DNA of 64,000 bases from an uncultured Phascolarctobacterium sp. (lineage in GTDB: Bacteria; Bacillota; Negativicutes; Acidaminococcales; Acidaminococcaceae), in NCBI RefSeq assembly GCF_900753045.1, contig NZ_CAADXO010000012.1, positions 36,588-100,587 of the forward strand, in the 5' to 3' direction. Below, piece by piece: positions 5,377 to 48,277 of the stretch. Position numbers and translations under genes: made by a program. Under the pieces are notes generated by a model, which was given only the letters and a program-made list of their open reading frames with translations, searched no databases and had not been told where the DNA came from. The first letter of the stretch is position 1. Each line of letters begins with the position of its first letter.

Positions 5377-5648
5377 TTACACAGGTGCAATGAATTGCAG
5401 TGCATGAAAATCTCACGTTTGAGAAAAGGAAAATTTAACATAATATACATTATCGGACGTAAAATATTATTTTGCAGTCTCTGCGCTAAAAAGGCAGCAT
5501 TATAGATATAGTTATTTCCCGACTGAGGAAAATGCTGAAAAAAGCGTCAGATTATGATAATTTTTCGCTTTTTGCTCCTCCCCCGAAGGTTTTAAGAAGC
5601 TTTTAGCGTTTTTTATGTTAAATTAGCCACCGTGCGCACTGCTGTTTG

Positions 5649-5676
5649 ACGAAATTACTTTTATCTGTTATAATTT
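5649..5676 (+). promoter_or_regulatory. Sigma-70-like promoter upstream of lexA
   Basis: TTGACG, then 17 bp, then TATAAT, about 40 bp upstream of the lexA RBS (GGAGGG). Confidence 0.4.
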
Positions 5677-5715
5677 GTATAAGGTAACTATAAACACATG
5701 ATTGGAGGGTCTAAA

Positions 5716-6381
5716 ATGGGAAGAAGAAAAGCACTCCCGCCGGACTTTGATGGCAACTATACCGAAGATATGTTGTCTGAACGCCAACGTAACATTTTGA
5801 AATTCGTCCGTACTTTTATTAATCATAAGGGTTATCCGCCTGCTGTACGCGAAATCGGTGCAGCAGTAGGTTTATCCTCCAGTGCTAGCGTGCATAATCA
5901 TCTGAAGAAGCTGCAGGAGTATGGTTTCATTCAGCGTGATGCTGCCAAACCGCGTGCTCTGGAGCTGATGAGCGAGAGCGATGCCTGGAGAAACAAACTC
6001 CTTGTTCCGGTACCGCTGGTTGGCAAGGTTACTGCAGGTGTTCCTATTCTTGCTGTCGAGAACATTGAAGAGACCTATCCTATTCCTCGCGACCTGATTG
6101 GCTGCGACGATGATGTTTTCATGCTTTCCGTATGCGGTGACAGCATGATTAACGCAGGTATTCTGGATCATGACTACATTATTGCACGTAAGCAGAATTT
6201 TGCTAATAACGGCGATATTGTCGTTGCCCTGATTGACGGCGAGGAAACCACCGTTAAGCGTTACTTCCGCGAGCTGCGCAGTGTGCGCCTGCAGCCGGAA
6301 AACGATAAGTACGAGCCGATTGTTGGTTCTGACAACATTAAGGTGCTTGGCAAGGTTATTTCTGTATTCCGCATGCTCTAA
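5716..6381 (+). CDS. lexA: LexA repressor (SOS regulator, S24 autopeptidase)
   Basis: N-terminal winged HTH (RQRNILKFVRTF...GYPPAVREIGAAVGLSSSASVHNHLKKLQEYGFIQR). C-terminal S24 peptidase with the cleavage-site region VPLVGKVTAGVP, catalytic Ser in CGDSM and Lys in TVKRY. Start chosen at the ATG with GGAGGG 7 nt upstream; the ORF table starts 18 nt earlier. Confidence 0.85.
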   Translation: MGRRKALPPDFDGNYTEDMLSERQRNILKFVRTFINHKGYPPAVREIGAAVGLSSSASVHNHLKKLQEYGFIQRDAAKPRALELMSESDAWRNKLLVPVPLVGKVTAGVPILAVENIEETYPIPRDLIGCDDDVFMLSVCGDSMINAGILDHDYIIARKQNFANNGDIVVALIDGEETTVKRYFRELRSVRLQPENDKYEPIVGSDNIKVLGKVISVFRML

Positions 6382-7549: not shown

Positions 7550-10471
7550 TTACGCATTGATGATATTGTTGAACAAAGATTTATTGGCTTCGATAGGCTG
7601 CTTGCCGCCGACTACGCAGATCAGGCCGTCGCTGAGCATGTCCTCTACTACCTTAGCCAGTGCTTGCAGGTCTGCATTGCTTACCTGCAGGATTTCGTTG
7701 CGGATGCGCTGGCGCAGCTCTACGGGAACGTGCTTCAGATATTGCGCGGTAGCCTTGTCAAGACGCATGCTGTTGGTCAGGGGCTTATCCATCGTGCTGA
7801 TGGTACCGATAACGTACTTGTTCAGCTCGCGTTCGGGGAATTCTTCGTTTCTCAGCCATTCTGCCAGACCTTGGTAAGCCTCCAGAGTTTTCGGCAGCTG
7901 CGGGTCGCGGTAGGATGCAAACACGCCTACGCCGTTCAGCTCAAAGCGTGCGGTAACGCCGTAAGCGCCGCCCTGAATACGGATTTTGGTCCAGAGATAT
8001 TCGTAGCTCAGAATGGTTTCCAGTACAGCCATAGCGCCCACGTATTTGTGACCGTGCTTAGCAAAGTTGCCGCCTGCAGCAACGTATTGCACCTTGCCTG
8101 CGGTAGCAATAGCCTCGTTGACAGTGCCTACGGGCAGAACCTCAGCCTTCTCTCCTGCTTCGGCATCAGACAGCTTGCTGATGAAATCAAGGCACTGCTG
8201 TCTTACTGCTGCCTGCTCTTTTACGTCACAGCTGTAGCTGAGCAGGAAACGATTCTTTTGGAAGAAGCGTTTGATTAACTGTCGCAATTGCTCCAGTACC
8301 TGCGGTGCCAGCTCGTCGAAGTTGTCGGTCAGCTTTTTGAGGAACTGGTAATAGCTGAATTCATCCTGCTCGTTGACGCGTGCGCCGGCAGAGCAATAAG
8401 AGAACAGTCTGGTGATAGCAACTGTCTGACCGCGATTGAAGAAGTTGTCGTCCCAATCGGTTTTCAGCTCGGACACCAGCTCGCGGAAGCGGTCCAGATC
8501 GTCCATCTTGCTTTCCAAAGCAATAGCCTGCAGGATGTCCAGCATTTTCGGCAGGTTATCGGTAAGGCATTTTCCTTTGGTGGAAAAGTAAATTTTATAA
8601 TCGTCCGTAGATTCTGCTTCGGTGAAGGCGCGTACAGCGAACGCAATACCACCGGTATACATGATGGCGTTGGTTGCCAGCTCCTGATAGCTGTAGCGCT
8701 CGGTGTTGAACTTGCCCATGATATCGGTGAGCAGATAGCACAGAGGCAACTTGTCAGCTTCCATGTCGGTGATATCAAAATAGAAGCTGGTATAAGCGAT
8801 TTTATTGGTGTTGCGCGGAAGATACAGCAGATGGCTTGCGCCCAGCTCTTCCTCCTGCGTTTCAATCTTCTCTACCTCCTGTCTGATGTCGCTGCGTTTC
8901 AGTACAGGGATGGTGGCACGTGCTTCCTCACTGTCGGGAGTAGCCTGCAGGCGGTGCAGCTCGGCGCATTCGTCGATATGCTGCTGCAGCTCCTCCCGGC
9001 TCATCTGTGCTTTGATAGCGCTCATCTTGGCAGCAGCGGCCTCCTGGTCTGCCTCCTCCTTGCCGGGCTGCGGCAGCAGGGTTACCAGCACCTTATGGGT
9101 GTTGTCCAGCAGGTAATTTTCAATGATGCTTTCGTAATAATTGGTTTTCAGGCCCTCGCGCAGAGCTGCCAGATATTTGTTGTAGCACAGGCCTTCAATC
9201 GGATTGCCGTCGTACAGCCAGTTATCCATAACGCCGATGCCCAAAATCAGTCCCTTGGGATAGCCGCCGAAATCTGCCTCGCGCAACTTGAATTCCATAG
9301 AGTTGATGTTGGCCTCCAGCAGCTTTTTGTCAATGCCGTTGATGGTGATGTCCTGCAGTGTTTTATAGATAACACTGATAAATTTATCGCGCAGATCTTT
9401 CTCGCTGCCGCTGGCACGAATAGAAAATACCGGCTGATACATGCTGGAGGTGTAGCCGCCGTTGATAATCTGGCCTACACCTGCGTCCATCAGCGCACGG
9501 CGCAGTGCGGAGGATTCGCTGTCCAGCAGAGTGCTTTTCAGCAGGCTCAGCGCCATGCTGGTCTGCAGGTCGGTTGCCTTGCCTGTTACGATAGAAAGCT
9601 CGTGATATGTTTTGGCAGTGCAGTCCTCCTCTGCCCCAACCGGATAATATGCTTCGATATCCGCAGTACGCAGCAAGGGCTGCTGCTCTGCGATGGCGGA
9701 ATCAACAGTACCGGTCTTTTCGAAGCTGCTCAGATATTCGCTGTCGAGATATTCCAAAGTAGCGTCGATATCCATATCGCCGTATAAATAGATATAGCTG
9801 TTTTCCGGGCTGTAATAGGTTTTGTGGAACTGCTCGAATTTTTCCTGAGTCAGCTGCGGAATAGCGTCCGGATAGCCGCCGGATTCAAAACGGTAGCAGT
9901 TATCGGGGAACAGCGCCTTCAGTGCTTCGTTTTCCAGATAAGCGTCCGGCGAAGAATATACGCCCTTCATTTCGTTATAAACAACGCCGTTGTAGCTCAG
10001 CTCGCCGTCAAGGCTGTCCAGATTATAATGCCAGCCCTCTTGACGCAGGGTGTATTTGTTCTGATAGAAGGAAGGATAGAACACAGCGTCCAGATATACG
10101 TCCATCAGGTTATGGAAGTCCTTATCGTTGCGGCTGGCAACGGGATACATGGTCTTATCCGAGAAGGTCATAGCGTTCAAAAAGGTGTTCAGAGAACCCT
10201 TGACGAGGTCTACGAAGGGCTCCTTTAAGGGATATTTGCGGGAGCCGCAGAGAGAGGAATGCTCCAGAATATGTGCCACACCTGTATCATCTGCAGGCGG
10301 AGTTCTGAAGGAAATAGAAAAAACCTTGTTATCGTCATCGTTAGCAAGGTACAAAAGGCGTGCGCCGCTCTTGATATGCTCCATGATATATGCCTGGGAG
10401 CTGATTTCATCTACAAATTGTGCTTGTAAAACCTTAAAGCCGTGGTATACGGCATTTATTGCTAAAGTCAT
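7550..10471 (-). CDS. M16-family zinc metallopeptidase (PreP/insulinase-like, about 970 aa)
   Basis: Inverted zincin motif HILEHSSLCGSRKYP (HxxEH) near the N-terminus and the large four-domain size typical of M16C peptidases. Confidence 0.8.
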   Translation of the reverse strand: MTLAINAVYHGFKVLQAQFVDEISSQAYIMEHIKSGARLLYLANDDDNKVFSISFRTPPADDTGVAHILEHSSLCGSRKYPLKEPFVDLVKGSLNTFLNAMTFSDKTMYPVASRNDKDFHNLMDVYLDAVFYPSFYQNKYTLRQEGWHYNLDSLDGELSYNGVVYNEMKGVYSSPDAYLENEALKALFPDNCYRFESGGYPDAIPQLTQEKFEQFHKTYYSPENSYIYLYGDMDIDATLEYLDSEYLSSFEKTGTVDSAIAEQQPLLRTADIEAYYPVGAEEDCTAKTYHELSIVTGKATDLQTSMALSLLKSTLLDSESSALRRALMDAGVGQIINGGYTSSMYQPVFSIRASGSEKDLRDKFISVIYKTLQDITINGIDKKLLEANINSMEFKLREADFGGYPKGLILGIGVMDNWLYDGNPIEGLCYNKYLAALREGLKTNYYESIIENYLLDNTHKVLVTLLPQPGKEEADQEAAAAKMSAIKAQMSREELQQHIDECAELHRLQATPDSEEARATIPVLKRSDIRQEVEKIETQEEELGASHLLYLPRNTNKIAYTSFYFDITDMEADKLPLCYLLTDIMGKFNTERYSYQELATNAIMYTGGIAFAVRAFTEAESTDDYKIYFSTKGKCLTDNLPKMLDILQAIALESKMDDLDRFRELVSELKTDWDDNFFNRGQTVAITRLFSYCSAGARVNEQDEFSYYQFLKKLTDNFDELAPQVLEQLRQLIKRFFQKNRFLLSYSCDVKEQAAVRQQCLDFISKLSDAEAGEKAEVLPVGTVNEAIATAGKVQYVAAGGNFAKHGHKYVGAMAVLETILSYEYLWTKIRIQGGAYGVTARFELNGVGVFASYRDPQLPKTLEAYQGLAEWLRNEEFPERELNKYVIGTISTMDKPLTNSMRLDKATAQYLKHVPVELRQRIRNEILQVSNADLQALAKVVEDMLSDGLICVVGGKQPIEANKSLFNNIINA

Positions 10472-15094: not shown

Positions 15095-17431
15095 TTATTC
15101 GTTGCTGCCTTTCTTAGTTGTAGTAGTTTTTTTCGTTGCAGTGGTTTTCTTTGCAGTAGCGGTTTTTTTAGCAGTAGTTGTTTTAGTAGCTGTAGTCTTT
15201 TTAGCGGCAGTGGTTTTCTTCGCAGCAGTTTTGGTAGCAGCAGTTTTCTTAGCGGTAGTCTTTTTAGCCGCCGCAGTTTTCTTGGCTGCGGTTGTTTTGG
15301 CTTCCGCAGTCTTTGCTGCAGCGGTCTTGGAAGCATATACCGGTCTTGCCTTAGAGCATTCCGGGTTGCTGCAGAACTTGCGCTTGCTGCCGTTGCGTTC
15401 CACGTGCTCTACCATCATATGCTTACATTCCGGGCATTCCTCATTAAGCGGTTTATCCCAGGTGGTGTAATCGCACTCGGGATATTTTTCGCAGCCATAA
15501 AATACCTTGCCGGTTTTACTCTTGCGTTCGAGAATATCGGCGCCGCACTGAGGACATTTTACACCAATCGGGTGCAGGATAGGCTTAGTATTGCGGCATT
15601 TGGGGAAGTTGGGGCAAGCCAGGAACTTGCCGAAGCGTCCTTCGCGGATAACCATCATGGTGCCGTCGTTGCACTTGTCGCAGGGAACGTCGGATACCTC
15701 CAGCGGGATTTCGACAATAGGAATGGCCACGCCTGCGTGGTCCAGATCCTTTTTGAAGGGACCGTAGAATTCGCTGAGGACCTCGTCCTTGGTGTGCTTC
15801 TTCTCGGCAACCTCATCCAGCTTTTCCTCCATCTGGGCGGTGAAGCCGATGTTGATAAGCTCCTTGAAGTATTCAGTGAGCATATCCACGGTCATAATGC
15901 CAAGCTCGGTAACAAGCAGCTTTTTGGCTTCTTTGACAACGTAACCGCGGGTGAGCAGTGTAACGATGGTAGGCGCAAAGGTGCTGGGGCGGCCGATGCC
16001 CTTCTCCTCCAGCTCTTTGATGAGCGTTGCTTCGGTGAAGTGCGCGGGCGGCTCGGTGAAGTGCTGCTCTGCCGGCATAAGCTTGTAAAGCAGCAGCTTG
16101 CTGCCGGGTTCGACGTAAGGCACCTTGGAGTCCTTTTCTTTATCGTCATATTTGCTGTGCAGCTGCAAGAAGCCCGGGAATTTCAGTACGGAGCCTGTTG
16201 CGCGCAGCTGGTAGTCGGCAGCATCAATCGTCAGAGTGGTAACGTCATAAACAGCGTCCGACATCTGGCTGGCAACAACGCGGTTCCAGATGAGGGTATA
16301 CAGCTTGAGCTGGTCGCCTGTAAGGTACTCCTGCATCTCGGCCGGGGTACGCATAACGCTGGTCGGACGAATTGCCTCATGCGCGTCCTGTGCGTTCTTT
16401 TTGGTGCTGTAGTGGTTTTCCTTCGGCGGGCAGAATTCGCTGCCGAAGTTTTGCTTGATATAGTCGCGGATTTCGGCAATGGCAACCTCTGCCAGACGCA
16501 CGGAGTCGGTTCTCATGTAGGTAATCAGGCCGACGGAGGTTTTGCCCAGAGATACGCCTTCATAAAGCTGCTGTGCGAGCATCATGGTCTTTTTGGCGCT
16601 GAAGTTGAGCTTTTTATTGGCCTCCTGCTGCATGCTGGAGGTAGTAAACGGCGGTACGGGGTGACGCTTGCGTTCCTTCTTCACTGCGTCGCTCACGATG
16701 TAATCAGCCTTGGACAGCGCTTCCTCCGCTGCTCTTGCCTCCTGCTCGTTGTGCAGCTCCAGCTTTTTGCCCTGATATTTTACTGCTTCCGCTTCAAAGA
16801 GCTGTCCCTTGCTGCCTTCACGCAGCTTGGCGCTTAACGTCCAGTATTCTACCGGCACAAAGTCTTCAATTTCACGGTCGCGGTCGGCAACGATTTTGGT
16901 AGCAACGGATTGTACGCGGCCGGCGCTCAGGCCCTTGCGAATTTTGCGCCACAGCAGCGGGCTCAGCTGATAGCCTACGATACGGTCCAAAATACGGCGT
17001 GCCTGCTGTGCATCAACCATATCCATGTCAATGCAGCGCGGATGCTTGATAGCGTCCTTGACAGCGGCAGCGGTAATTTCATGAAATTCAATGCGGCAGG
17101 CAGATGTCGGGTCGATGCCCAGAATAAATGCCAGATGCCAGCTGATTGCTTCACCCTCGCGGTCAGGGTCAGTTGCCAGTAAAACTTTGTCGGCTTTTTT
17201 GGCTTCTGTTTTCAGCGCTTTGATTAAATCGCCCTTACCGCGGATGTTGATATATTTCGGCTCAAATTCGTTTGCATGCTCCTCGTCCGGCAGAAAGGTT
17301 ACACCTAGGGTGCTTTTCGGCAGGTCGCGCAAATGTCCCATAGAAGCCTTTACAGTATAGTTTTTGCCTAAAAATTTCTCGATAGTCTTGGATTTCGTAG
17401 GTGATTCCACGATAACCAGAGTCTTTGCCAT
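15095..17431 (-). CDS. topA: DNA topoisomerase I
   Basis: TOPRIM N-terminus MAKTLVIVESPTKSKTIEKFLG...ASMGHLRDLP, C-terminal Zn-ribbon repeats (CPxCG...), and a long K/A/T-rich tail. Confidence 0.95.
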   Translation of the reverse strand: MAKTLVIVESPTKSKTIEKFLGKNYTVKASMGHLRDLPKSTLGVTFLPDEEHANEFEPKYINIRGKGDLIKALKTEAKKADKVLLATDPDREGEAISWHLAFILGIDPTSACRIEFHEITAAAVKDAIKHPRCIDMDMVDAQQARRILDRIVGYQLSPLLWRKIRKGLSAGRVQSVATKIVADRDREIEDFVPVEYWTLSAKLREGSKGQLFEAEAVKYQGKKLELHNEQEARAAEEALSKADYIVSDAVKKERKRHPVPPFTTSSMQQEANKKLNFSAKKTMMLAQQLYEGVSLGKTSVGLITYMRTDSVRLAEVAIAEIRDYIKQNFGSEFCPPKENHYSTKKNAQDAHEAIRPTSVMRTPAEMQEYLTGDQLKLYTLIWNRVVASQMSDAVYDVTTLTIDAADYQLRATGSVLKFPGFLQLHSKYDDKEKDSKVPYVEPGSKLLLYKLMPAEQHFTEPPAHFTEATLIKELEEKGIGRPSTFAPTIVTLLTRGYVVKEAKKLLVTELGIMTVDMLTEYFKELINIGFTAQMEEKLDEVAEKKHTKDEVLSEFYGPFKKDLDHAGVAIPIVEIPLEVSDVPCDKCNDGTMMVIREGRFGKFLACPNFPKCRNTKPILHPIGVKCPQCGADILERKSKTGKVFYGCEKYPECDYTTWDKPLNEECPECKHMMVEHVERNGSKRKFCSNPECSKARPVYASKTAAAKTAEAKTTAAKKTAAAKKTTAKKTAATKTAAKKTTAAKKTTATKTTTAKKTATAKKTTATKKTTTTKKGSNE

Positions 17432-31175: not shown

Positions 31176-32330
31176 CTAAGCTTCTATCACAGCAACGTGT
31201 TTTTCCGAACATTCCTGCAAGATGTGCCCATAGATAGCATAGGTGACCGCTATGCTAGTGTGTCCTAAGCGTTCTGTTATAAGAGCTATAGGTACATGCT
31301 TGTAAATCATGTTGGATGCATTTGTGTGTCTCAATCCGTGGAACGTGAAAGGTCTAGTGATACCTGCGCCTTTCCTAGTGAAATCCCACGCATGGATAAG
31401 CAACCGCTCCACATAGAAGCTATCTCTTTTCCTATTATAGAAGATATAAGGTGACTTGTCAAAGCTAAGTGGCTTTAAAGACATAAGAAGCTGTGTTGTC
31501 TTCTCAGATATTTTGATGGTGCGATACCCAGCTTGTGTCTTAGGGTATGTAACTATTGTCTTGTTATTCTTATCCTTAGCTAAGGTTCTTTTTACAGATA
31601 TTGTATTAGCAGCATCATCGAGACAATCCCACGTAAGAGCTAACAGCTCCCCTTCTCTCATGCCTGTTTCATAAGCAAGACAATACAGAGCATAGAACTG
31701 ATACTTCAGCATAGGTTTCTCCTTGTGCTCCCATAGGGGCAGGAGGAACGCTTTGATTCGCTCGTGCTCCTCTTGCGATAAGACAACCACTTCATGTTTA
31801 GGTTTGTCACTCTTTGGTGTCTTCTGCATCGAAGTTACAGGTGACTTTCCAATGAGGTCTTGTTCTACACACCATTTGAAAAAGAGCCTTAAGCGACCTA
31901 TATAATTAAGATAGGTATTAGTTGAATAGTTCTTTTGATGCCACTCTAAGAGCATGGTATCTATAGTATGAGTGGTGACCTTAGATAACGCTAAGCCATT
32001 AGCTGTTTTGTCTAGGAGCTTAAGTACACGCCTTGTGGTGATTATTACAGACCCTGACATCCGCTGAGCTTCTAGGTGCTTAAGGTACACCTCACCCTGA
32101 TACTTTATTGTGTCTTCTTCTGCTTTTACTTGCAGACCTTTATCCTCTTTGTCTCTCTGAAGCTTCTTCAGCTTCTCCACAGCTTCCTTTTTTGTGTCTG
32201 CTGTGGCTGATAGCCAACGCCTTTTGCCATCCACAGGGTCTAATTCTACCCTAACACGTACTTTACCGCTAGGGAGGACTATTATAGACCCCTCTCCTTT
32301 AGGTCTTCTACGAGTGGTTTTAGATGGCAT
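31176..32330 (-). CDS. int: Tyrosine-type site-specific recombinase (phage integrase)
   Basis: C-terminal catalytic region FHGLRHTNAS ... LGHTSIAVTYAIYGHI carrying the R..H-x-x-R...Y signature. Start at MPSKTTRRR, 7 nt after AGGAGG. Confidence 0.9.
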   Translation of the reverse strand: MPSKTTRRRPKGEGSIIVLPSGKVRVRVELDPVDGKRRWLSATADTKKEAVEKLKKLQRDKEDKGLQVKAEEDTIKYQGEVYLKHLEAQRMSGSVIITTRRVLKLLDKTANGLALSKVTTHTIDTMLLEWHQKNYSTNTYLNYIGRLRLFFKWCVEQDLIGKSPVTSMQKTPKSDKPKHEVVVLSQEEHERIKAFLLPLWEHKEKPMLKYQFYALYCLAYETGMREGELLALTWDCLDDAANTISVKRTLAKDKNNKTIVTYPKTQAGYRTIKISEKTTQLLMSLKPLSFDKSPYIFYNRKRDSFYVERLLIHAWDFTRKGAGITRPFTFHGLRHTNASNMIYKHVPIALITERLGHTSIAVTYAIYGHILQECSEKHVAVIEA

Positions 32331-32389
32331 TATAAAACCTCCTGACTTCAAAAATTGCCAAAAATTGTGAAAGGGTATATATAATATAG

Positions 32390-36643: not shown

Positions 36644-39229
36644 ATGACACAAGTAGATGTGGACATGATGGAAGAAGAATTGAAGTTGGAATCTGCCTAC
36701 AGATTAGCAGGGTATGAAACGATGCAACGCAACCTGCAACAAGCCAAAGAAAATAGCATGGTAGATACAGCTACCCCTATTGGACAAGCATTTTTCACCC
36801 ACAAGCTGTTGGCTGTAAAAGACACAATCGAACAATGGCTTATCAAGAACATGAAACCCAAAGCAGGTGTAAAGCCTAACTATACTTTTCTTTTGGAAGA
36901 CCTGAAAAGAGAGTTCCGCACAGAGGATGATGAGGTTGATATTGACACCATATCTTCTATCTGTGCTAGTGTTACCTTATCCGCTATCTTAAATGCCTTA
37001 ACTCTCAAAGGTGAAAAAGGCAACTATCTGAATGATGTAGCTGCTAAAGCTGGGCGTGGCTTGTACTATGAGTATCAGATGAAAGCCTTTGAAAATTGGC
37101 TGAAGACACAAGACACCAATAAAGGAGCATTGGCAGGTATAGAAAAAAGAGTTGGTCTCCATTATCGTTATGTCTATCTGAAACAGGCTATGTCCAAATG
37201 TGGCTACGCTGCCCCAAATTGGGATAGTCAGAACACAGCTATCCGTACATTAGGTACTGCTTTTGTTGTCTTAGCACAGGAGGAGACAAACTACTTCACC
37301 TTAGAAGCTACTATGGATACCCCTTCTGAGCTTATCCCCACAGAGCAATTTACAGAAGCGTGGCAACGCAATGAAGACAATATGCTGGAACATGCAAGAC
37401 AAAGCTGCCCTATGATTATCCCTCCTAAAGATTGGACAAGCTATGAGGATGGTGGTTATTATGGTGACCTTGCATCCTTCACCTCTCTCCTGCGTTTAAA
37501 GTACCTTGATACTATTTTTGGTAAACAGTACAAACGTAGACTTATGCAACTTGACATTCCACAGGTTTATAAGGCTGTCAATAGTATTCAGGCAACACCA
37601 TGGGTAATCAATAAGCAGGTATTAGAGGTGCTGAAGCAATGTAGACAAAACAACTATATCCCCTGCTCTAGTGAGAATGGAAATGTGCTGTCTTTAGAAA
37701 ATGATGATGCTCCCAAACAACCAGCATCCACAGCCACGGATGAGGAAATAAAGGCATATAAGAAAAAGGCTGTGGAATACTACAAGGGATTGAAACGTCG
37801 TATGTCTTTGCAGAATCGTGCAAATACTATTATAAATACAGCAGAACGCTTCAGCTCCTATGCACACATCTACTTTCCGTGGAACATGGACTTCAGAGGT
37901 CGCATTTACCCTATCCCCTCTTTCAGTCCTCAAAGTGATGATTTAAACAAAGGCTTATTACTTTTTGCAGACACACCACCTTGCCAACATGAAGAAGACA
38001 TCAAGTGGCTTGCCATTACCGGAGCGAACCTTGCAGGTGTAGATAAAGTAAGCTACGATGATAGAATTGCATGGGTATATCAGCATGAAGAAGATATATT
38101 AGCATCTGCTGCTGACCCTATGGGACATCAATGGTGGCTGCAACAGGATGAGCCTGTACAGATGCTGGCGTTCTGCTTTGAGTGGGCAAAGGCTAAGCAA
38201 TGGATAGTTGCACATGGCTCTATTGTTGGTTGGGTAACAGGTCTCCCCTATGCTCAGGATGGAACGTGCTCCGGTCTGCAACATTTCAGTGCTATTCTCA
38301 GAGACCCTATTGGTGGTAAAGCTGTAAACCTTGTACCCCAAGACAAACCAAATGACATCTATGCACAAGTAGCGGAAAAAGTCAATGAGTTTTTGAAAAA
38401 AGATGCAGTAAATGGCACTCTTGATGAATGGGATGAAAAGAAGCTGAGAATGAAGTTTGGCACAAAAACCCTTGCGCAAATATGGTTAAACTTTGGGGTA
38501 AACCGCAAGGTTACCAAAAGACCAACCATGACACTCGCCTATGGTGCTAAAAAGGCAGGATATACTGCTCAAATTATGGAAGACACCATAAAGAAGGCAA
38601 TGAGAGAGCAGGGAGAAGCGTGTGTCTTCACTCAATCTAATAATTTTCAGGCTGCACAGTATTTGGCTGGTCAGATATGGGATGCTGTGGGTCAAACAGT
38701 TGTAAAGGCTGTTGAGGGTATGGATTGGTTACATAAATGTGCTAAACTTGTCACAAAAAATTCAAATGTTGTATCTTGGGTTACCCCTCTAGGCTTACTG
38801 TTACAACAGAGCTATGTCAAGTTTGATATTGAAATTGTTAAGCTCAGATGTGCTGGAAAACGCTATCGTATCTATACTCCACATCAGAATGGACAGATAG
38901 ACAAAAGCAGACAAACAAATGGCATTGCCCCTAACTTCATTCATAGCATGGATGCATGTCACTTGCAACTTACAGTCTGCAAATGCAAAGATGCAGGAAT
39001 TAATCACTTTACGATGATTCACGATAGCTATGGTTGTCCTATGTCTCAGGTGGATATTATGTATAAGTTAGTAAGAGAAGCCTTTATAGAGCTTTATACA
39101 GAGCATGATGTTCTTGCTGAATTTAAAGAATCTCTACAATATTTAGTAACTAAAGAACTCCCTGCTCCACCTAAAAAGGGAGAATTAGACCTGAACATTA
39201 TAAGAGACAGTAAGTATATATTTTGCTAA
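36644..39229 (+). CDS. Single-subunit DNA-directed RNA polymerase (T7 gene 1 family)
   Basis: Motif A region DGTCSGLQHFSAILRD against T7 DGSCSGIQHFSAMLRD. Motif C MIHDSYG. LAFCFEWAKAK against T7 LAFCFEY. 861 aa against 883 aa in T7. Confidence 0.95.
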   Translation: MTQVDVDMMEEELKLESAYRLAGYETMQRNLQQAKENSMVDTATPIGQAFFTHKLLAVKDTIEQWLIKNMKPKAGVKPNYTFLLEDLKREFRTEDDEVDIDTISSICASVTLSAILNALTLKGEKGNYLNDVAAKAGRGLYYEYQMKAFENWLKTQDTNKGALAGIEKRVGLHYRYVYLKQAMSKCGYAAPNWDSQNTAIRTLGTAFVVLAQEETNYFTLEATMDTPSELIPTEQFTEAWQRNEDNMLEHARQSCPMIIPPKDWTSYEDGGYYGDLASFTSLLRLKYLDTIFGKQYKRRLMQLDIPQVYKAVNSIQATPWVINKQVLEVLKQCRQNNYIPCSSENGNVLSLENDDAPKQPASTATDEEIKAYKKKAVEYYKGLKRRMSLQNRANTIINTAERFSSYAHIYFPWNMDFRGRIYPIPSFSPQSDDLNKGLLLFADTPPCQHEEDIKWLAITGANLAGVDKVSYDDRIAWVYQHEEDILASAADPMGHQWWLQQDEPVQMLAFCFEWAKAKQWIVAHGSIVGWVTGLPYAQDGTCSGLQHFSAILRDPIGGKAVNLVPQDKPNDIYAQVAEKVNEFLKKDAVNGTLDEWDEKKLRMKFGTKTLAQIWLNFGVNRKVTKRPTMTLAYGAKKAGYTAQIMEDTIKKAMREQGEACVFTQSNNFQAAQYLAGQIWDAVGQTVVKAVEGMDWLHKCAKLVTKNSNVVSWVTPLGLLLQQSYVKFDIEIVKLRCAGKRYRIYTPHQNGQIDKSRQTNGIAPNFIHSMDACHLQLTVCKCKDAGINHFTMIHDSYGCPMSQVDIMYKLVREAFIELYTEHDVLAEFKESLQYLVTKELPAPPKKGELDLNIIRDSKYIFC

Positions 39230-44000: not shown

Positions 44001-45347
44001 ATGCTCTACTTTGATATTGAAACCGATGGTCTGCTGGACAATGTTACTAAAGGGCATTGTCTAGTAATCATCGACGAACAGAACAACATCTCAGCTTACA
44101 GACCTGATGATTTTAAAAAAGGAGCTATGCGATTAATCGCTGCTCTGAGGGATGGAGAAAGCATCTGCGGGCATAACATCATCAATTATGACTGTGCTGT
44201 CTTAGCTAAGCTCTATCCCGAGTTTCGCATAAAGCGAGAATGGAGACCACAAGTTTTAGATACCCTTGTGCTGTCACGTCTTATCTGTGGCAACATAGAA
44301 GATACTGACCACGCTAGGGTACGTAATGGTACACTCCCTGCTAAATTGATTGGTAGACAATCACTAAAGGCATGGGGTTATCGCCTTGGGGAACTTAAAG
44401 GTACGTATGGTGAGCAAGAGGATGCATGGGATTCTTTCAGTGAGGAAATGCTCTCCTATTGTGTGCAGGATGTCACTGTTACCAAGAAGCTCTATACATA
44501 CCTCATGAAGATTGGTGCACCTGCTAAGGCTATAGAGCTGGAGCATCAAGCACAATGGCTGATGTCTAAGCAGGAGCGGAATGGTTTTGTCTTTGACTTA
44601 GAAAAGGCAGAAAAGCTGAGGGAAACCTTAGAATTGCGCTATGCTGTGTTGTCTTCTCAGCTTGTGGCTATTGTGCCACAGATACCTGATAAGGTCTTTA
44701 TACCAAAAAGAGATAACAAACGCTTAGGGTATAAAGCAGGTGTACCTATTCAAAGATATAAGGACTTCAATCCTAGTAGCAGACAGCAGGTAGCATGGGT
44801 GCTGGAGCATCAATTCAACTACTTGCCGGAAAACGAAGACTGCTATGAGGATGAACGCCTGAAGATTGATGGTGATACCTTTAAGTTTATTAAGGGTGAT
44901 GAAAATGCCCCACAAGAACTAAGAGACTTAGCTGCTGTCTTTGAGGAGTATCTTATGGTGGCTAAGCGGTTAGGTCAGCTTGCCACAGGTAACCAAGCAT
45001 GGCTGAAGCATGTTAAGGCTGATGGTAGAATCCATGGTAGCGTAAATCCTTGTGGTACAGTAACAGGACGTGCTACCCATGCGAACCCTAATGTTGCCCA
45101 AGTCCCCCACGTTGGTAGTCCTTATGGTCAAGAGTGCAGGGAATTGTTTAGAGCACCTGAGGGTTGGTTTGAGGTAGGTGTAGATGCCTGTGGCTTGGAG
45201 CTTAGGTGTCTTGCACACTATCTTTATCCCTATGATAAAGGTGCTTATGCCCATGTTATCTTGAATGGTGATATTCATACATTGAATCAACAGGCTGCTG
45301 GGTTACCTACTAGAAACGCAGCTAAGACATTTATATATGCGTTCCTT
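44001..45347 (+). CDS. DNA polymerase (T7 gp5 family), exon 1: 3'-5' exonuclease and N-terminal polymerase part
   Basis: MLYFDIETDGLL (ExoI), HNIINYDCAVL (ExoII), and ...GRIHGSVNPCGTVTGRATH...LELRCLAHY...TFIYAFL against T7 TFIYGFL. The reading frame stops 5 codons after the T7-equivalent position, where the intron begins. Confidence 0.85.
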
Positions 45348-46002
45348 AAAATGCACTATTGAGGAACTAAAACCCATTGAAAACGGTGAAACTCTCACTG
45401 AGACAATACCGTGCTAAGATTTTGGAGGAAATGTGAATAGATGAACAAAACTAATCATTATAGAGGTGCAGAAAATCCACAGTATAAATATGGTGCTGGT
45501 GTCTTTGTTAGAAAAAGGACAGAGATAAAAGAACGTATTGGTAAATGTGAACGCTGTGGTAAAGATTTGACTAATGCAGGACATTATGAGTGGTGTGTGC
45601 ATCATAAAAACCATAACCATTATGATAACACTGAGGGTAATTATGAGTTATTATGCAAGAAGTGCCATCAATTAGAGCATCAATGTGTAAAGAATATCCC
45701 TAAATCATATGAAAAAGTATGTGAACTCTGTGGAGATACCTTTACTGCAAAAGCACATAATCAAAAATATTGCCCTGGCTGTCTCAAAGTCCAACGAAAT
45801 ATGCGCCGATATAGAAGTTTTGAGCAAATAAAAGCATATATCCTTCAAAATAAAGTGTAACGACTATTCCGTAAGGAAGTACAGCACAAGCTAATGGTGC
45901 TGGAAGTGGTGGGCATTGATGATATAGTCTATTCTCATAGGTGACTATGAGCAGTTTCTTAGAAAACGCTTGGGGACTTGCGAACCCTAGGGAATAATTA
46001 AG
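45348..46002 (+). mobile_element. Group I self-splicing intron in the DNA polymerase gene
   Basis: 5' exon ends ...TTCCTT. An internal guide candidate GAGGA 13 nt downstream can form P1 with a U-G pair at the splice site. The intron ends in G (..TAAG). Joining 45347 to 46003 restores ...TFIYAFL|YGAGDKAIG..., matching T7 ...TFIYGFLYGAGDEKIG. Confidence 0.7.
45441..45860 (+). CDS. Intron-encoded HNH homing endonuclease
   Basis: Zn-finger-like CERCGK and an HNH core HHKNHNHYDNTEGNYELLCKKCHQLEH. Own RBS GGAGGA. Confidence 0.8.
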   Translation: MNKTNHYRGAENPQYKYGAGVFVRKRTEIKERIGKCERCGKDLTNAGHYEWCVHHKNHNHYDNTEGNYELLCKKCHQLEHQCVKNIPKSYEKVCELCGDTFTAKAHNQKYCPGCLKVQRNMRRYRSFEQIKAYILQNKV

Positions 46003-46512
46003 TATGGTGCTGGTGATAAAGCTATTGGTAAACAGCTTGGTGGGGATGAAAAGGTTGGCAAGCAGGTAAAGAACAAATTCCTGAAGGCTACCCCTGCTAT
46101 CAAGATGCTGCGTGAAGCTGTCAAGAATACACTCGTGGTTGAGTACCACGGAAAAATTAAAGAATGGAAACGAAAATATTTAAGAGGGTTGGATGGCAGA
46201 CATCTCCATGTGAGAAGTCTACATTCAGCTCTCAATTTGCTTTTACAGTCCTGTGGTGCATTGATATGTAAAAAATGGATATGCCTATGGGAAGAAAACA
46301 TGATTAAAGCTGGCTATGACCATGGAAAAGATTTTCAATTCATGGCATGGGTGCATGATGAGGGGCAAGTAGCTTGCAGAACCGAAGCTATTGCTGAAGA
46401 AGCTGTGAGAATTGCCCAAGAATCTATGAGACAAACACAAGAATATTATGGAATCAGATGCCAATTAGATACCGAGGGAAAGATTGGTAAAAATTGGTAT
46501 GATTGCCACTAG
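46003..46512 (+). CDS. DNA polymerase (T7 gp5 family), exon 2
   Basis: YGAGDKAIGKQLGG...LRGLDGRHLHVRSLHSALNLLLQSCGALICKKW...AWVHDEGQVACRTE...QLDTEGKIGKNWYDCH aligns with the T7 gp5 C-terminus (...MGPNWAICH). Confidence 0.8.
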   Translation, partial: YGAGDKAIGKQLGGDEKVGKQVKNKFLKATPAIKMLREAVKNTLVVEYHGKIKEWKRKYLRGLDGRHLHVRSLHSALNLLLQSCGALICKKWICLWEENMIKAGYDHGKDFQFMAWVHDEGQVACRTEAIAEEAVRIAQESMRQTQEYYGIRCQLDTEGKIGKNWYDCH

Positions 46513-46518
46513 GAGGTT

Positions 46519-47154
46519 ATTACAATAAAGATATTAGTAGCATGTGAAGAAAGTCAACGTGTAACCATTGAGTTACGTAAGTTAGGGCATGAAGCCTATA
46601 GTTGCGACATCATCCCTTGTAGTGGGGGGCATCCTGAATGGCACTTGCAGCAGGATGTTATCCCATTGTTGAAAGAGAAGTGGGATATGATTATTGCTTT
46701 TCCACCTTGTACCTATTTCACAACAGCAGGTGCATGTCGCATGTTTCATAAAGTAGAGGGTGTTAGCATCCTGGACGAAGAACGCTATGCTAATGCTATG
46801 AAGATGAAAGCATTGTTTTTAGCTATCTATGAAGCAGATTGTCCTTATATTTGTATTGAGAATCCTACTCCTATGAAAGTGGTAGGACTTCCTCCTCATT
46901 CACAAGTTATTCAACCCTATCAGTTTGGGCATCCGTGGAGCAAAAGAACTTTATTATGGTTAAAAGGTCTTCCACCTTTGAAGGCTACATGTGTGGTTGA
47001 ACCCACAATGGGAAGTTGGGTTAATGGTTCAGCAGATGCCTACAAGAAAGCTAATGGAAAGCACAATGGCAAAAGTTCTGCTATTGAGCGTAGTAAGACC
47101 TTTGAGGGTATTGCTAGAGCTATGGCAGAGCAATGGGCAGGAAAGAATGTTTAA
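46519..47154 (+). CDS. C5-cytosine-methyltransferase-fold protein with a degenerate SAM motif and no target-recognition domain
   Basis: The frame is open from the DNA pol stop with no ATG/GTG/TTG before the TTG at 46645. Homology to C5-MTases, as I recall their motifs, starts at 46528: KILVACEESQ at motif I (FxGxGG expected), FPPCTYFTTAG at motif IV (PCQ), ICIENP at motif VI (ENV), and HPWSKRT at motif VIII (QxRxR). A conservative CDS would be 46645..47154. Confidence 0.5.
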   Translation: MTIKILVACEESQRVTIELRKLGHEAYSCDIIPCSGGHPEWHLQQDVIPLLKEKWDMIIAFPPCTYFTTAGACRMFHKVEGVSILDEERYANAMKMKALFLAIYEADCPYICIENPTPMKVVGLPPHSQVIQPYQFGHPWSKRTLLWLKGLPPLKATCVVEPTMGSWVNGSADAYKKANGKHNGKSSAIERSKTFEGIARAMAEQWAGKNV

Positions 47155-47533
47155 CATCCCCACTCTACTCTTAGTCATATGCACCGCCTATACCCCTGCC
47201 TTGGACGAATGTGGGAAGACCGATGGCATTACAGCAAGTGGACACCCTGCAATCATGGGGCAAACAGTAGCCTGTGATGGACTACCTCTAGGAACTGAGG
47301 TGGTTATTGATGGTCACAGCTACATTGTTCAGGACAGGTTCGGCGGTGATTATGGTAAGACAAAAATTGATATATTTATGAACACTAAAGCAGAAGCCTT
47401 TAGGTTCGGAAGACAAACAAAAATTGTGGAGGTAAAGCCTTATGTCGAAACAAAAGCAACCTTTTGTGCCAAAGATTGGTCAGAAGGTCTATATCAAACG
47501 TCAGAACTCCTTAGGAGAACCTATCTATTTTGA
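47147..47533 (+). CDS. 3D-domain (MltA/RlpA-like) cell-wall-binding protein with an N-terminal signal anchor
   Basis: LPLGTEVVIDGHSYIVQDRFGGDYGKTKIDIF matches the 3D domain pattern (GT.V.I.G...D.GG...IDIF). Its C-terminal 92 nt overlap the next ORF in another frame. Confidence 0.5.
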   Translation: MFNIPTLLLVICTAYTPALDECGKTDGITASGHPAIMGQTVACDGLPLGTEVVIDGHSYIVQDRFGGDYGKTKIDIFMNTKAEAFRFGRQTKIVEVKPYVETKATFCAKDWSEGLYQTSELLRRTYLF

Positions 47534-47657
47534 GGGTGAGGTAACAAGAATCCGTGTGGAAGTTAAGTGTAAGCAAGGTAGTTTCAGAACTGTAGCTTCA
47601 CCTCATACTTTAGAGACCAAAGCAAAAGGTCTTGTAGCAGGAGGTGACCTGTTCTGA
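47442..47657 (+). CDS. Hypothetical protein (71 aa)
   Basis: Strong RBS GGAGGT 8 nt upstream. Its stop overlaps the thyX start (TGATG), suggesting translational coupling. Confidence 0.5.
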   Translation: MSKQKQPFVPKIGQKVYIKRQNSLGEPIYFEGEVTRIRVEVKCKQGSFRTVASPHTLETKAKGLVAGGDLF

Positions 47658-48277
47658 TGGTAAGTGCTAAGCTTATCTCTATCACCCCTAACTACATGGA
47701 GGTATTGAAGACTGCTTGTAGTCAACCCTATGGTAAAGATGTTACTGAAAAGTCTATCAAGAAAATTATTGAGAGTGGACATCTTAGTGTCTTGGAGCAT
47801 TGCTCTGCTTCTTTTTTGGTTACGTGTAGTGTACGTGTCTTAGGACAACTCACGAGACATCGCCACCTCAGCTTCACCTGTAAATCTGCTCGTGGTAGTG
47901 TCTTTGATACCTGCATTATTCCTGATGGTATGTATGATTTTGCTAAAAAGCATGGCGTACCTAAAGAAGTTATTGATTCTATGATTGATAAGCATCCTAT
48001 GCTTCATGCCTACAAAGAATGTATTGCTGATGGTCTTAGTGAGCAGGATGCTGCCTATTTTTTACCACAGGGCGTTGAGACATCCTTGGTAGTAACAGGT
48101 AATTTTAGAGCATGGCATGAATATTTGCCTAAGCGTTTATGCAAGAGAGCTATGCCGGAGCATAGAGAGTTGGCTATGGCTATTCAAAAATGCTTGGCTG
48201 ATGCTGCACCTGAAATCTTTGATAAAAACTTTATGAACTGTAAGCACTGTACTGAAAGGAGCTGTGATTTTAAATGA
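47657..48277 (+). CDS. thyX: Flavin-dependent thymidylate synthase ThyX
   Basis: ThyX signature RHRHLSFTCKSAR (RHR-x7-S-x-R) plus the N-terminal HLSVLEHCSASF motif, 206 aa. Confidence 0.8.
   Translation: MVSAKLISITPNYMEVLKTACSQPYGKDVTEKSIKKIIESGHLSVLEHCSASFLVTCSVRVLGQLTRHRHLSFTCKSARGSVFDTCIIPDGMYDFAKKHGVPKEVIDSMIDKHPMLHAYKECIADGLSEQDAAYFLPQGVETSLVVTGNFRAWHEYLPKRLCKRAMPEHRELAMAIQKCLADAAPEIFDKNFMNCKHCTERSCDFK

Follow-up and report, generated by a model that had tools for sequence, protein, structure and literature searches.

A probable mobile group I intron without P8 in motif B of a T7-like prophage DNA polymerase gene

A 64-kb stretch of the genome of an uncultured Phascolarctobacterium sp. 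(contig NZ_CAADXO010000012.1; hereafter the window, to whose plus strand all coordinates refer unless stated) contains a T7-like prophage with a family A DNA polymerase gene that is interrupted from position 45348 to 46002. The interruption is very probably a mobile IA2-type group I intron carrying an HNH homing endonuclease. Its boundaries are exact, its secondary structure covaries, it is present in some related phages and absent from others, it bears a signature of recent horizontal spread, and its HNH open reading frame (ORF) is intact. The element is of a known kind, represented by the polymerase introns of coliphages PhiI and W31, cyanophage Pf-WMP3 and phage SPO1. HNH-bearing group I introns in phage polymerases are textbook selfish elements and the basic finding is confirmatory; in this case the insertion site is new and the core is unusually reduced, without the P8 hairpin.

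Translation of the polymerase frame opening at 44001 agreed with a sequence-only reading of the window, which had this frame stop after TFIYAFL-KMHY and resume as YGAGDKAIG: after ...AKTFIYAFL the frame continues with KMHY and meets a TGA stop codon at 45360-45362. Exon 1 comprises the 3'-5' exonuclease domain and the N-terminal portion of the polymerase domain as far as ...NAAKTFIYAFL, and matches the Pfam profiles RNase_H_2, DNA_pol_A_exo1 and DNA_pol_A (profile positions 28-190). Exon 2 opens at 46003 with YGAGDKAIG (YGAGDKAIGKQLGG...), includes the VHDE of motif C, matches positions 219-381 of the same DNA_pol_A profile, and has its stop codon at 46510-46512. Excision of 45348-46002 joins 45347 to 46003 (ligated junction ...TATGCGTTCCTT/TATGGTGCTGG, with the slash marking the insertion point here and below) and gives an in-frame product of 618 amino acids, which phmmer aligned to T7 DNA polymerase chains with an E value of 4.6e-156. 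The alignment is unbroken over the junction (query TRNAAKTFIYAFLYGAGDKAIG versus T7 517-TRDNAKTFIYGFLYGAGDEKIG), as had been claimed for T7 gp5, and RNAAKTFIYAFLYGAGD matches T7 residues 518-534, including the O-helix residues R518, K522, Y526 and Y530. This unbroken alignment places the insertion point within motif B, the O-helix, at the boundary of the residues that correspond to T7 L529 and Y530. By motif correspondence, we take this to be approximately position 765/766 of E. coli Pol I. An intein and a group II intron were ruled out by the in-frame stop four codons in, the lack of intein or reverse-transcriptase domains, and the group I anatomy described below.

Sibling phages were collected from human-gut metagenome contigs by an exact-sequence look-up of the neighbouring primase-helicase protein (viral and metagenome contigs used for comparison carry L-numbers). 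The polymerase is uninterrupted and 618 amino acids long in L009, L012 and L013, and in these contigs and in L014, where the gene runs off the contig end, the window flanks meet exactly at 45347/46003. This comparison with phages lacking the insert, suggested by the sequence-only reading, defines the junction to the base and places the terminal guanosine of the intron, as predicted, at G46002. The exons of the intron-less alleles are ~93% identical to those of the window. The final 10 nucleotides (nt) of exon 1 hold five synonymous differences, the window having TAT GCG TTC CTT where the intron-less alleles have TAC GCC TTT TTG. The exon segment of P1 is CUUUUUG in the latter and the pairing with the intron guide is absent there; of the two versions, only that of the window has the final U and the complementarity to the guide. 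The 24-mer TATGCGTTCCTT/TATGGTGCTGGT is a signature of the intron-plus allele, and the intron-less siblings read TACGCCTTTTTG/TATGGT. Around the site, the L009-type intron-less allele is ...TACGCCTTTTTGTATGGT..., and the predicted spliced junction of the intron-plus allele is ...TATGCGTTCCTTTATGGT....

The RNA was analysed with Rfam covariance models. RF00028 was the sole family to match the 64-kb window at E<=0.1, with a main match at 45775-45951 (29.2 bits, E=0.0017) and a second, partial match to P4-P6 at 45383-45472 (13 bits). Two features depress the score: the core is interrupted by the 420-nt ORF, and the P8 region of the model is missing. The sibling L025 has its intron at this site too, between the same exon flanks but without an ORF; there RF00028 scored 60.3 bits (E=5.9e-15), above the gathering score of 50 bits, and the model alignment agrees with the assigned P3, P4-P6, P7 and P9. 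The RF00028 consensus for J6/7-P7 (AAcGACUA), J8/7-P7' (GAUAUAGUCU), P3, P4-P6 and P9 is matched throughout by the window intron. Its helices follow in canonical order, and P2 is absent. Phage introns are assigned to subgroup IA2 when a G-U-A linker connects two additional hairpins, P7.1 and P7.2, placed ahead of P3' and after P7 (PMC3428280); the window intron has P7.1-GUA-P7.2 at this place and also an extended P9 domain (P9.0, P9.1, P9.2). Its GC content is 36.6%, compared with 45.2% for the window. A minimum-free-energy fold of the single sequence recovered P1, P6a, P7.1 and P9; it cannot represent the P3/P7 pseudoknot and was not used as evidence. The coordinates are collected in Table 1.

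Table 1. Features of the interrupted polymerase gene, the intron and the prophage. Double changes are the base pairs altered on both sides in alignment A2.
Feature	Position	Strand	Double changes	Basis or remark
DNA polymerase exon 1 (T7-like family A)	44001-45347	+		449 codons; ORF list, Pfam, T7 gp5 alignment
P1 5' strand (exon GUUCCUU)	45341-45347	+		U45347 is the 5' splice-site U; compensatory variants in relatives
Group I intron	45348-46002	+		655 nt; presence/absence alleles, RF00028 matches, covariation
P10 intron strand (GCACUAU)	45353-45359	+		7 base pairs with 3' exon 46004-46010 (AUGGUGC); just 5' of guide
Internal guide, P1 3' strand (GAGGAAC)	45361-45367	+		13 nt downstream; terminal pair U45347•G45361
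P3 5' strand (CCCAUUG)	45373-45379	+	1	Partner 45907-45913 (UGGUGGG); 100% paired in A2
P4	45383-45387 with 45408-45412	+	2	Encloses P5; partial RF00028 match, covariation
P5	45393-45396 with 45400-45403	+	1	Inside P4
P6 (GC)	45413-45414 with 45855-45856 (GU)	+	0 (invariant)	Covariation alignment
P6a 5' strand (AUUUUG)	45419-45424 with 45846-45851 (CAAAAU)	+	6 (of 6)	ORF in loop
Shine-Dalgarno GGAGG	45424-45428	+		12 nt before ATG; first G is the last base of P6a
HNH homing-endonuclease ORF	45441-45860	+		139 amino acids; within P6a loop; PHROG match
P7 5' strand (GACUA)	45862-45866	+	0 (invariant)	Partner 45925-45929 (UAGUC); fits RF00028 consensus
P7.1 hairpin	45867-45878	+	2	Covariation
GUA linker between P7.1 and P7.2	45879-45881	+		Sequence
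P7.2 hairpin	45882-45902	+	2	9-nt loop AAGCUAAUG; covariation
Linker CAUUG in place of P8	45914-45918	+		P8 hairpin absent
J8/7 (AUGAUA)	45919-45924	+		Fits RF00028 consensus AAGAUA-UAGUC
P9.0	45930-45933 with 45993-45996	+	1	Covariation
P9	45934-45951	+	4	Covariation
P9.1	45954-45967	+	2	Covariation
P9.2	45970-45990	+	6	Covariation
Terminal guanosine (omega G)	46002	+		3' splice site; junction fixed by intron-less alleles
DNA polymerase exon 2	46003-46512	+		169 codons plus stop; translation, Pfam, T7 alignment
Tyrosine integrase	31176-32351	-		Precedes the phage gene set
Single-subunit RNA polymerase	36644-39229			Part of the T7-like set

To assess the assigned structure by covariation, related introns were collected by pattern scans across viral and metagenome contigs, which recovered many. 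A MAFFT alignment that included P8-containing outgroups (A1) misaligned the P7.2-P3'-P8 region, so covariation was counted only in alignment A2, consisting of 12 distinct but mutually related P8-less sequences, and the outgroups were judged by eye. Controls consisted of sliding the pairing partners by 1-3 columns and of 500 shuffles scored by five whole-structure measures. In the assigned structure 98.7% of cells are paired, compared with 36.5-43.2% in the slid controls, a contrast inflated by deriving the structure from the very sequences that were counted. Changes on both sides were observed for 27/60 pairs, compared with 2-5 in the slid controls. None of the 500 shuffles attained the observed values in four of the five measures, and 69/500 did so in the fifth, which counts further standard pair types. 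P4 and P5 are 100% paired, with three doubly changed pairs, as are P7.1 and P7.2, with four; the helices of the P9 domain (P9.0 to P9.2) are 93.5-100% paired and hold 13. In P3, a C-G pair becomes U-A in L201, and an A-U pair becomes U-A in the Klebsiella phage IME184. A foldable P3-P9 core, the lack of which would have counted against the sequence-only reading, is thus present, with helices that covary except for the invariant P6 and P7.

The pairings with the exons change together with the exons. P1 consists of GUUCCUU/GAGGAAC in the window, AUUCCUU/GAGGAAU in L201, AGACCUU/GAGGUCU in relatives at a second site (types B/C), AUGCGU/GCGCAU in IME184 and UCAUCU/GGAUGA in L015, and the terminal U•G pair occurs in every P1 of the window, L201, the second-site relatives and IME184. 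The exon-final U, the GAGGA guide 13 nt downstream and the terminal U-G pair noted by the sequence-only reading are therefore borne out by compensatory variants. Both strands of P10 are likewise altered together, from AUGGUGC/GCACUAU in the window to AUGGUAG/CUACCAU in L060. The junction alleles, the covariation and the RF00028 matches together support the group I intron interpretation that had been made from the letters of the window.

These data bear on the alternative that no splicing occurs and that the polymerase, divided by a free-standing homing endonuclease gene, is made as two products that assemble into an active enzyme, a 'fractured gene'. Such split genes are known in phages (PMC2677866, PMC3045599), and in GenBank the related insertion of IME184 (5573-6213 region) is annotated in this form, as two 'DNA-directed DNA polymerase' coding sequences flanking an 'endonuclease VII' coding sequence, with the intron unannotated. 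In the window, however, the break falls in the middle of the O-helix at T7 L529/Y530, and the C-terminal part has no in-frame start codon before 46105, from which a stand-alone protein would be short of 34 residues of the fingers domain. Furthermore, ~235 nt of non-coding, structured and covarying RNA flank the ORF, the L025 insertion is free of an ORF yet passes RF00028, and a Pfam search found no intein-like or interaction domains. We consider a fractured gene very improbable.

The ORF was compared with protein family databases. It matched PHROG 25862 'HNH endonuclease' with an E value of 5.8e-22, and five further HNH PHROGs were matched as well. The HNH core, including the Cys pairs expected to bind zinc, reads C36xxC...H53H54...N...C72xxCH76...H80 and is followed by a second CxxC...CxxC pair in the C-terminal part. 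Residues 31-83 are matched weakly by the HNH domain of IscB (E=0.0012), and residues ~5-89 show 40-53% identity to HNH genes of various isolated phages. The sequence-only reading was right that an HNH ORF with its own ribosome-binding site is present; it is not 'free-standing' as had been stated, being encoded by the intron within the P6a loop, with its UAA stop codon (45858-45860) in J6/7, and the spacing from GGAGG to the ATG is long. A mini-ORF of two codons (AUG-UGA, 45431-45436) lies between GGAGG and the ATG at 45441. The overlap of GGAGG with P6a, the mini-ORF and the 12-nt spacing may be a way of holding endonuclease expression low.

The same ribozyme at the same site occurs with different cargo. 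The HNH ORF is carried by the window and by the diverged copies L053 and L201; a 154-amino-acid ORF of the Endonuclease_7 family takes its place in L060, L194 and L197; and L025 and L079, whose exon flanks also agree with the window, have no ORF, the intron being 233 nt long with P6a as a short hairpin. The L053 copy of the HNH ORF is intact, with 14 codon changes that are synonymous and 5 that are not, and L201 also has an intact copy in which the 139-amino-acid frame is kept. This pattern of divergence is consistent with selection on the protein.

To investigate the mobility of the intron, its identical copies were compared. The exact HNH protein sequence was present on 12 contigs; seven of these, from several samples, were aligned, and the intron is identical in all seven. 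Four of the HNH-bearing contigs that were read are phage-sized (39.9-47.7 kb). Compared with the window, L002 has mismatches at 0/655 intron, 50/1347 exon 1 and 35/513 exon 2 positions, and L005 at 0/655, 81/1347 and 14/513, respectively. The identical tracts flanking the intron extend for 24 nt upstream and 41 nt downstream in L002, and for 261 nt upstream and 11 nt downstream in L005. An intron that is 100% identical between alleles whose exons differ by 3-7% indicates recent homing. Together with the presence/absence polymorphism and the cluster of synonymous differences at the junction, the identical intron forms the pattern expected of endonuclease-driven homing with variable co-conversion. 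The identity of the intron in diverged backgrounds and the varying tract lengths lend indirect support to a predicted site-specific cut or nick in the intron-less allele close to the insertion point.

The same comparison bears on whether the element is a decayed, non-splicing remnant that has inactivated the polymerase of a defective prophage. Its location within a prophage, the missing P8 and the sub-threshold Rfam score would be compatible with decay. Against this, both exons are intact and in frame, the exact HNH protein and the identical intron recur on the contigs described above, diverged relatives retain every helix through compensatory changes, P1 and P10 track the exons, and the HNH ORF is intact with its 14:5 ratio of synonymous to non-synonymous changes. 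A decayed remnant is unlikely.

Uninterrupted TATGCGTTCCTT/TATGGTG was also found in L276-L286, which are distant phage polymerases with 26-57% DNA identity in the flanks. The possibility that these are spliced copies or recent intron losses was considered and rejected, as they are distant polymerases that merely use the same codons. Their sites already fit P1 and P10 of the window intron and are potential homing targets, or potentially the original donor background.

We propose a mechanism in which the polymerase pre-mRNA would fold into the ribozyme, and an exogenous guanosine bound in P7 would attack after U45347, positioned in P1 through pairing with the guide GAGGAAC and its U•G wobble. 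The 3' exon would be aligned by P10 (45353-45359 with 46004-46010), and the freed 3'-OH of exon 1 would then attack after the terminal G46002. The ligated exons would encode the intact 618-amino-acid polymerase, with the O-helix ...KTFIYAFL/YGAGD restored. In homing, the HNH endonuclease, whose ORF in the P6a loop has a ribosome-binding site of its own, would cut or nick intron-less polymerase alleles of co-infecting relatives near the site, followed by recombinational repair that copies the intron plus a variable stretch of flanking exon. The synonymous exon changes beside the intron would supply the P1 pairing and probably resistance to the endonuclease too.

Apart from the inflated pairing contrast, several points weigh against the interpretation as an active, mobile intron. 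A default Rfam scan of the window at the gathering threshold returns nothing (29.2 versus 50 bits). P7 is invariant in all relatives, so covariation neither supports nor contradicts it. The Pfam HNH score of the ORF is 17.7 bits, below the cutoff of 21.4, and its 12-nt spacing from the ribosome-binding site is long. As every copy of the exact intron is identical, purifying selection can be inferred only by way of distant relatives. The prophage could in principle be defective, and with P8 absent autonomous catalysis cannot be assumed. We infer splicing itself, its autonomy and the target of the endonuclease from sequence.

P8 is part of the conserved P3-P8 stack in group I introns. In the window only CAUUG lies between P3' (UGGUGGG) and J8/7 (AUGAUA-UAGUC), and the RF00028 alignment of L025 has 59 model positions deleted between P3' and J8/7. 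Close relatives have P8 hairpins at this place, consisting of the 12-nt CACCUACGGGUG (CACC-UACG-GGUG) in IME184 and CCCUC-GCAA-GAGGG in L017, and others are longer. The absence of P8 is common to all members of the window lineage, whose other helices covary. P8-less phage introns were also observed elsewhere, in large oral and gut viral contigs (L203, L205, L207, L209, L212, L219, L225), in L200, L206 and L224, and in an isolate, Streptococcus phage Str-PAP-1 (KP208803, L239 1335-1600), where the intron is unannotated. These introns are located in other genes, and three or more of them differ in core sequence from the window lineage. Their linkers are CAUAG, CAUUG, CUAG or CUUG, nearly always with a 5' C and a 3' G. 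A scan of species-representative genomes for the P3'-linker-J8/7 motif of the window intron gave zero matches. Replacement of P8 by a pseudoknot between CAUUG and the P7.2 loop (AAGCUAAUG), for which 5 base pairs are possible in the window lineage, was tested and rejected: L204 combines this loop with CAAAG; L203 and L205 have one loop between them but differ from each other in the linker, with no common register; and in Str-PAP-1, likewise without P8, the loop is a plain AAGC tetraloop.

The missing hairpin raises the alternative of a genuine group I intron that cannot self-splice without P8 and needs a protein cofactor, either an RNA chaperone from the host or the phage, or the endonuclease itself acting in the manner of a maturase. 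The replacement of a helix of the conserved stack by five nucleotides and the sub-threshold Rfam score of the window are in keeping with such a need. However, the same P8-less core carries two unrelated endonuclease ORFs or none, so the encoded protein cannot be an obligatory maturase. P8-less cores are also found across several diverged lineages and in different host genes, the isolate Str-PAP-1 being one case, and the window intron is without P2 as well, the element that docks on P8 in other group I introns, as in the Azoarcus structure. Obligate need for a cofactor is therefore rather unlikely, and dependence on a general host factor is possible.

Related ribozymes occupy four insertion points within ~17 nt of the O-helix codons (KTFIYAFLYG). 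Apart from the window site between L529 and Y530, these are between positions 2 and 3 of the F524 codon, 16 nt upstream of the window site (L167-L172, L171, L190, L204; these have the guide GAGGUC and belong to the same P8-less lineage), between positions 1 and 2 of Y526 (L015, L071), and between positions 1 and 2 of F528 (Klebsiella phages IME184 and Kpp-61). For family A polymerases of phages, the reported sites are 674, 676 and 881 (PMC3428280); the window site is previously unlisted and hence new. As a tentative hypothesis, to which we give somewhat less than even credence, the window intron belongs to a natural P8-less lineage that still splices, with a linker of 4-5 nt joining P3' to J8/7, and that retargets at least two O-helix positions 16 nt apart by changes in the guide (P1/P10) only, with close P8-containing relatives at two more, while swapping its cargo between HNH, Endonuclease VII and none. 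If P8-less cores do self-splice, the natural catalytic core would be smaller than in current group I models, and such cores would be systematically under-detected by standard covariance-model annotation. A literature search for natural P8-less group I introns found nothing relevant, but its terms were poor ('p8' also catches p85), so that absence of a report is not established, and the novelty of the P8-less core is uncertain.

Among isolated phages, the closest ribozyme is the unannotated one of the Klebsiella phages IME184 (MZ398244) and Kpp-61 (PQ570679), with 77-78% identity over P3-P6 and P7-P9.2. As in the window, it lies in the O-helix region of a podovirus DNA polymerase and has an ORF in P6a ending ...GUGUAACGACUA. 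The insertion is 5 nt upstream of that in the window, after GCGU, with the matching guide GCGCAU, and differs in its Endonuclease_7-family ORF, a normal P8 and a tetraloop on P7.2.

The introns of PhiI and W31 resemble that of the window in lying in a T7-like family A polymerase gene, in belonging to IA2, in having an HNH ORF in P6a with its own ribosome-binding site, and in being seated in a highly conserved catalytic motif. Their insertion point is in motif C, at position 881 of E. coli Pol I, whereas the window intron is in motif B, the O-helix, and the window lineage is P8-less. The contig L010 (ERZ27241609 k141_130654, 9556-10187), which has a primase-helicase identical to that of the window and no intron at the window site, contains a different group I intron of 632 nt at H/DE of motif C, with P8 present and a 146-amino-acid HNH_3/HTH ORF. 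Its position is the one reported for PhiI and W31.

The polymerase intron of cyanophage Pf-WMP3 (I-PfoP3I), for which self-splicing was shown experimentally, likewise comes from a T7-like phage, belongs to IA2, is ~670 nt long without P2, and has P7.1 and P7.2 joined by GUA, an ORF starting in P6a, an upstream ribosome-binding site and P10 (PMC3428280). Its site is 674 in E. coli numbering, unlike that of the window, and its HNH motif is C-terminal in an ORF running through P7-P7.2, whereas the window ORF has an N-terminal to central HNH motif and ends in J6/7 (PMC3428280). The polymerase introns of SPO1, SP82 and Bastille (I-HmuI, I-HmuII, I-BasI) and those of the Bastillevirinae (PMC11878797) show, as does that of the window, that IA-type introns with HNH nicking endonucleases have a hot spot in family A polymerase genes of phages. 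Covariance models frequently miss or split such introns as ORFs interrupt the core. The introns of this group differ from the window intron in their sites (674/676), their Firmicutes myovirus hosts and their NUMOD-domain endonucleases.

A single human-gut phage population thus offers a natural experiment, with intron-less alleles, a motif B intron with either endonuclease or none, and a second intron in motif C. With its visible co-conversion tracts, it lends itself well to work on homing and on the modularity of intron and endonuclease in the gut virome. The O-helix codons emerge as an insertion hot spot, and the requirement for P8 can be tested on a natural RNA of 233 nt. Default Rfam scans and gene callers return two polymerase fragments plus an endonuclease, which distorts phage pangenomes and calls of prophage 'intactness'.

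The genomic context of the polymerase gene was also examined. From position 1 to ~31000 the window is bacterial, with topoisomerase I, HydF and M16 peptidase among genes on both strands and a GC content of 0.43-0.58; topoisomerase I (15095-17431) is 94-98% identical to those of P. succinatutens and uncultured Phascolarctobacterium. After the integrase follows a co-directional T7-like set with a GC content of ~0.41, comprising RNA polymerase, primase-helicase, polymerase, ThyX, 5'-3' exonuclease and head-tail connector. The bacterial flank, the integrase and the T7-like set identify the host element as an integrated, temperate T7-like prophage of a gut Negativicute. A megablast search of the polymerase region against isolated phages returned nothing matching, and the phage is known from metagenomes only. 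The window spans the junction of chromosome and prophage (1-32351 and 32400-64000); the right prophage end is beyond it, and the gene set looks complete.

The interval between the polymerase gene and thyX (46513-47660) holds different sets of ORFs of 70-169 amino acids in the window, L002, L003, L005, L009 and L012, and forms a second variable spot directly downstream of the intron-bearing gene. Finally, nucleotides 21-71 of the window intron (P3-P6) share 84% identity with stretches lying within genes annotated as large terminase in K1E-like phages, with matches in gp40A of Escherichia phage K1E and in Klebsiella and Salmonella SP6/K1E-like phages. This similarity suggests that related introns may reside in the TerL genes of K1E-like phages.

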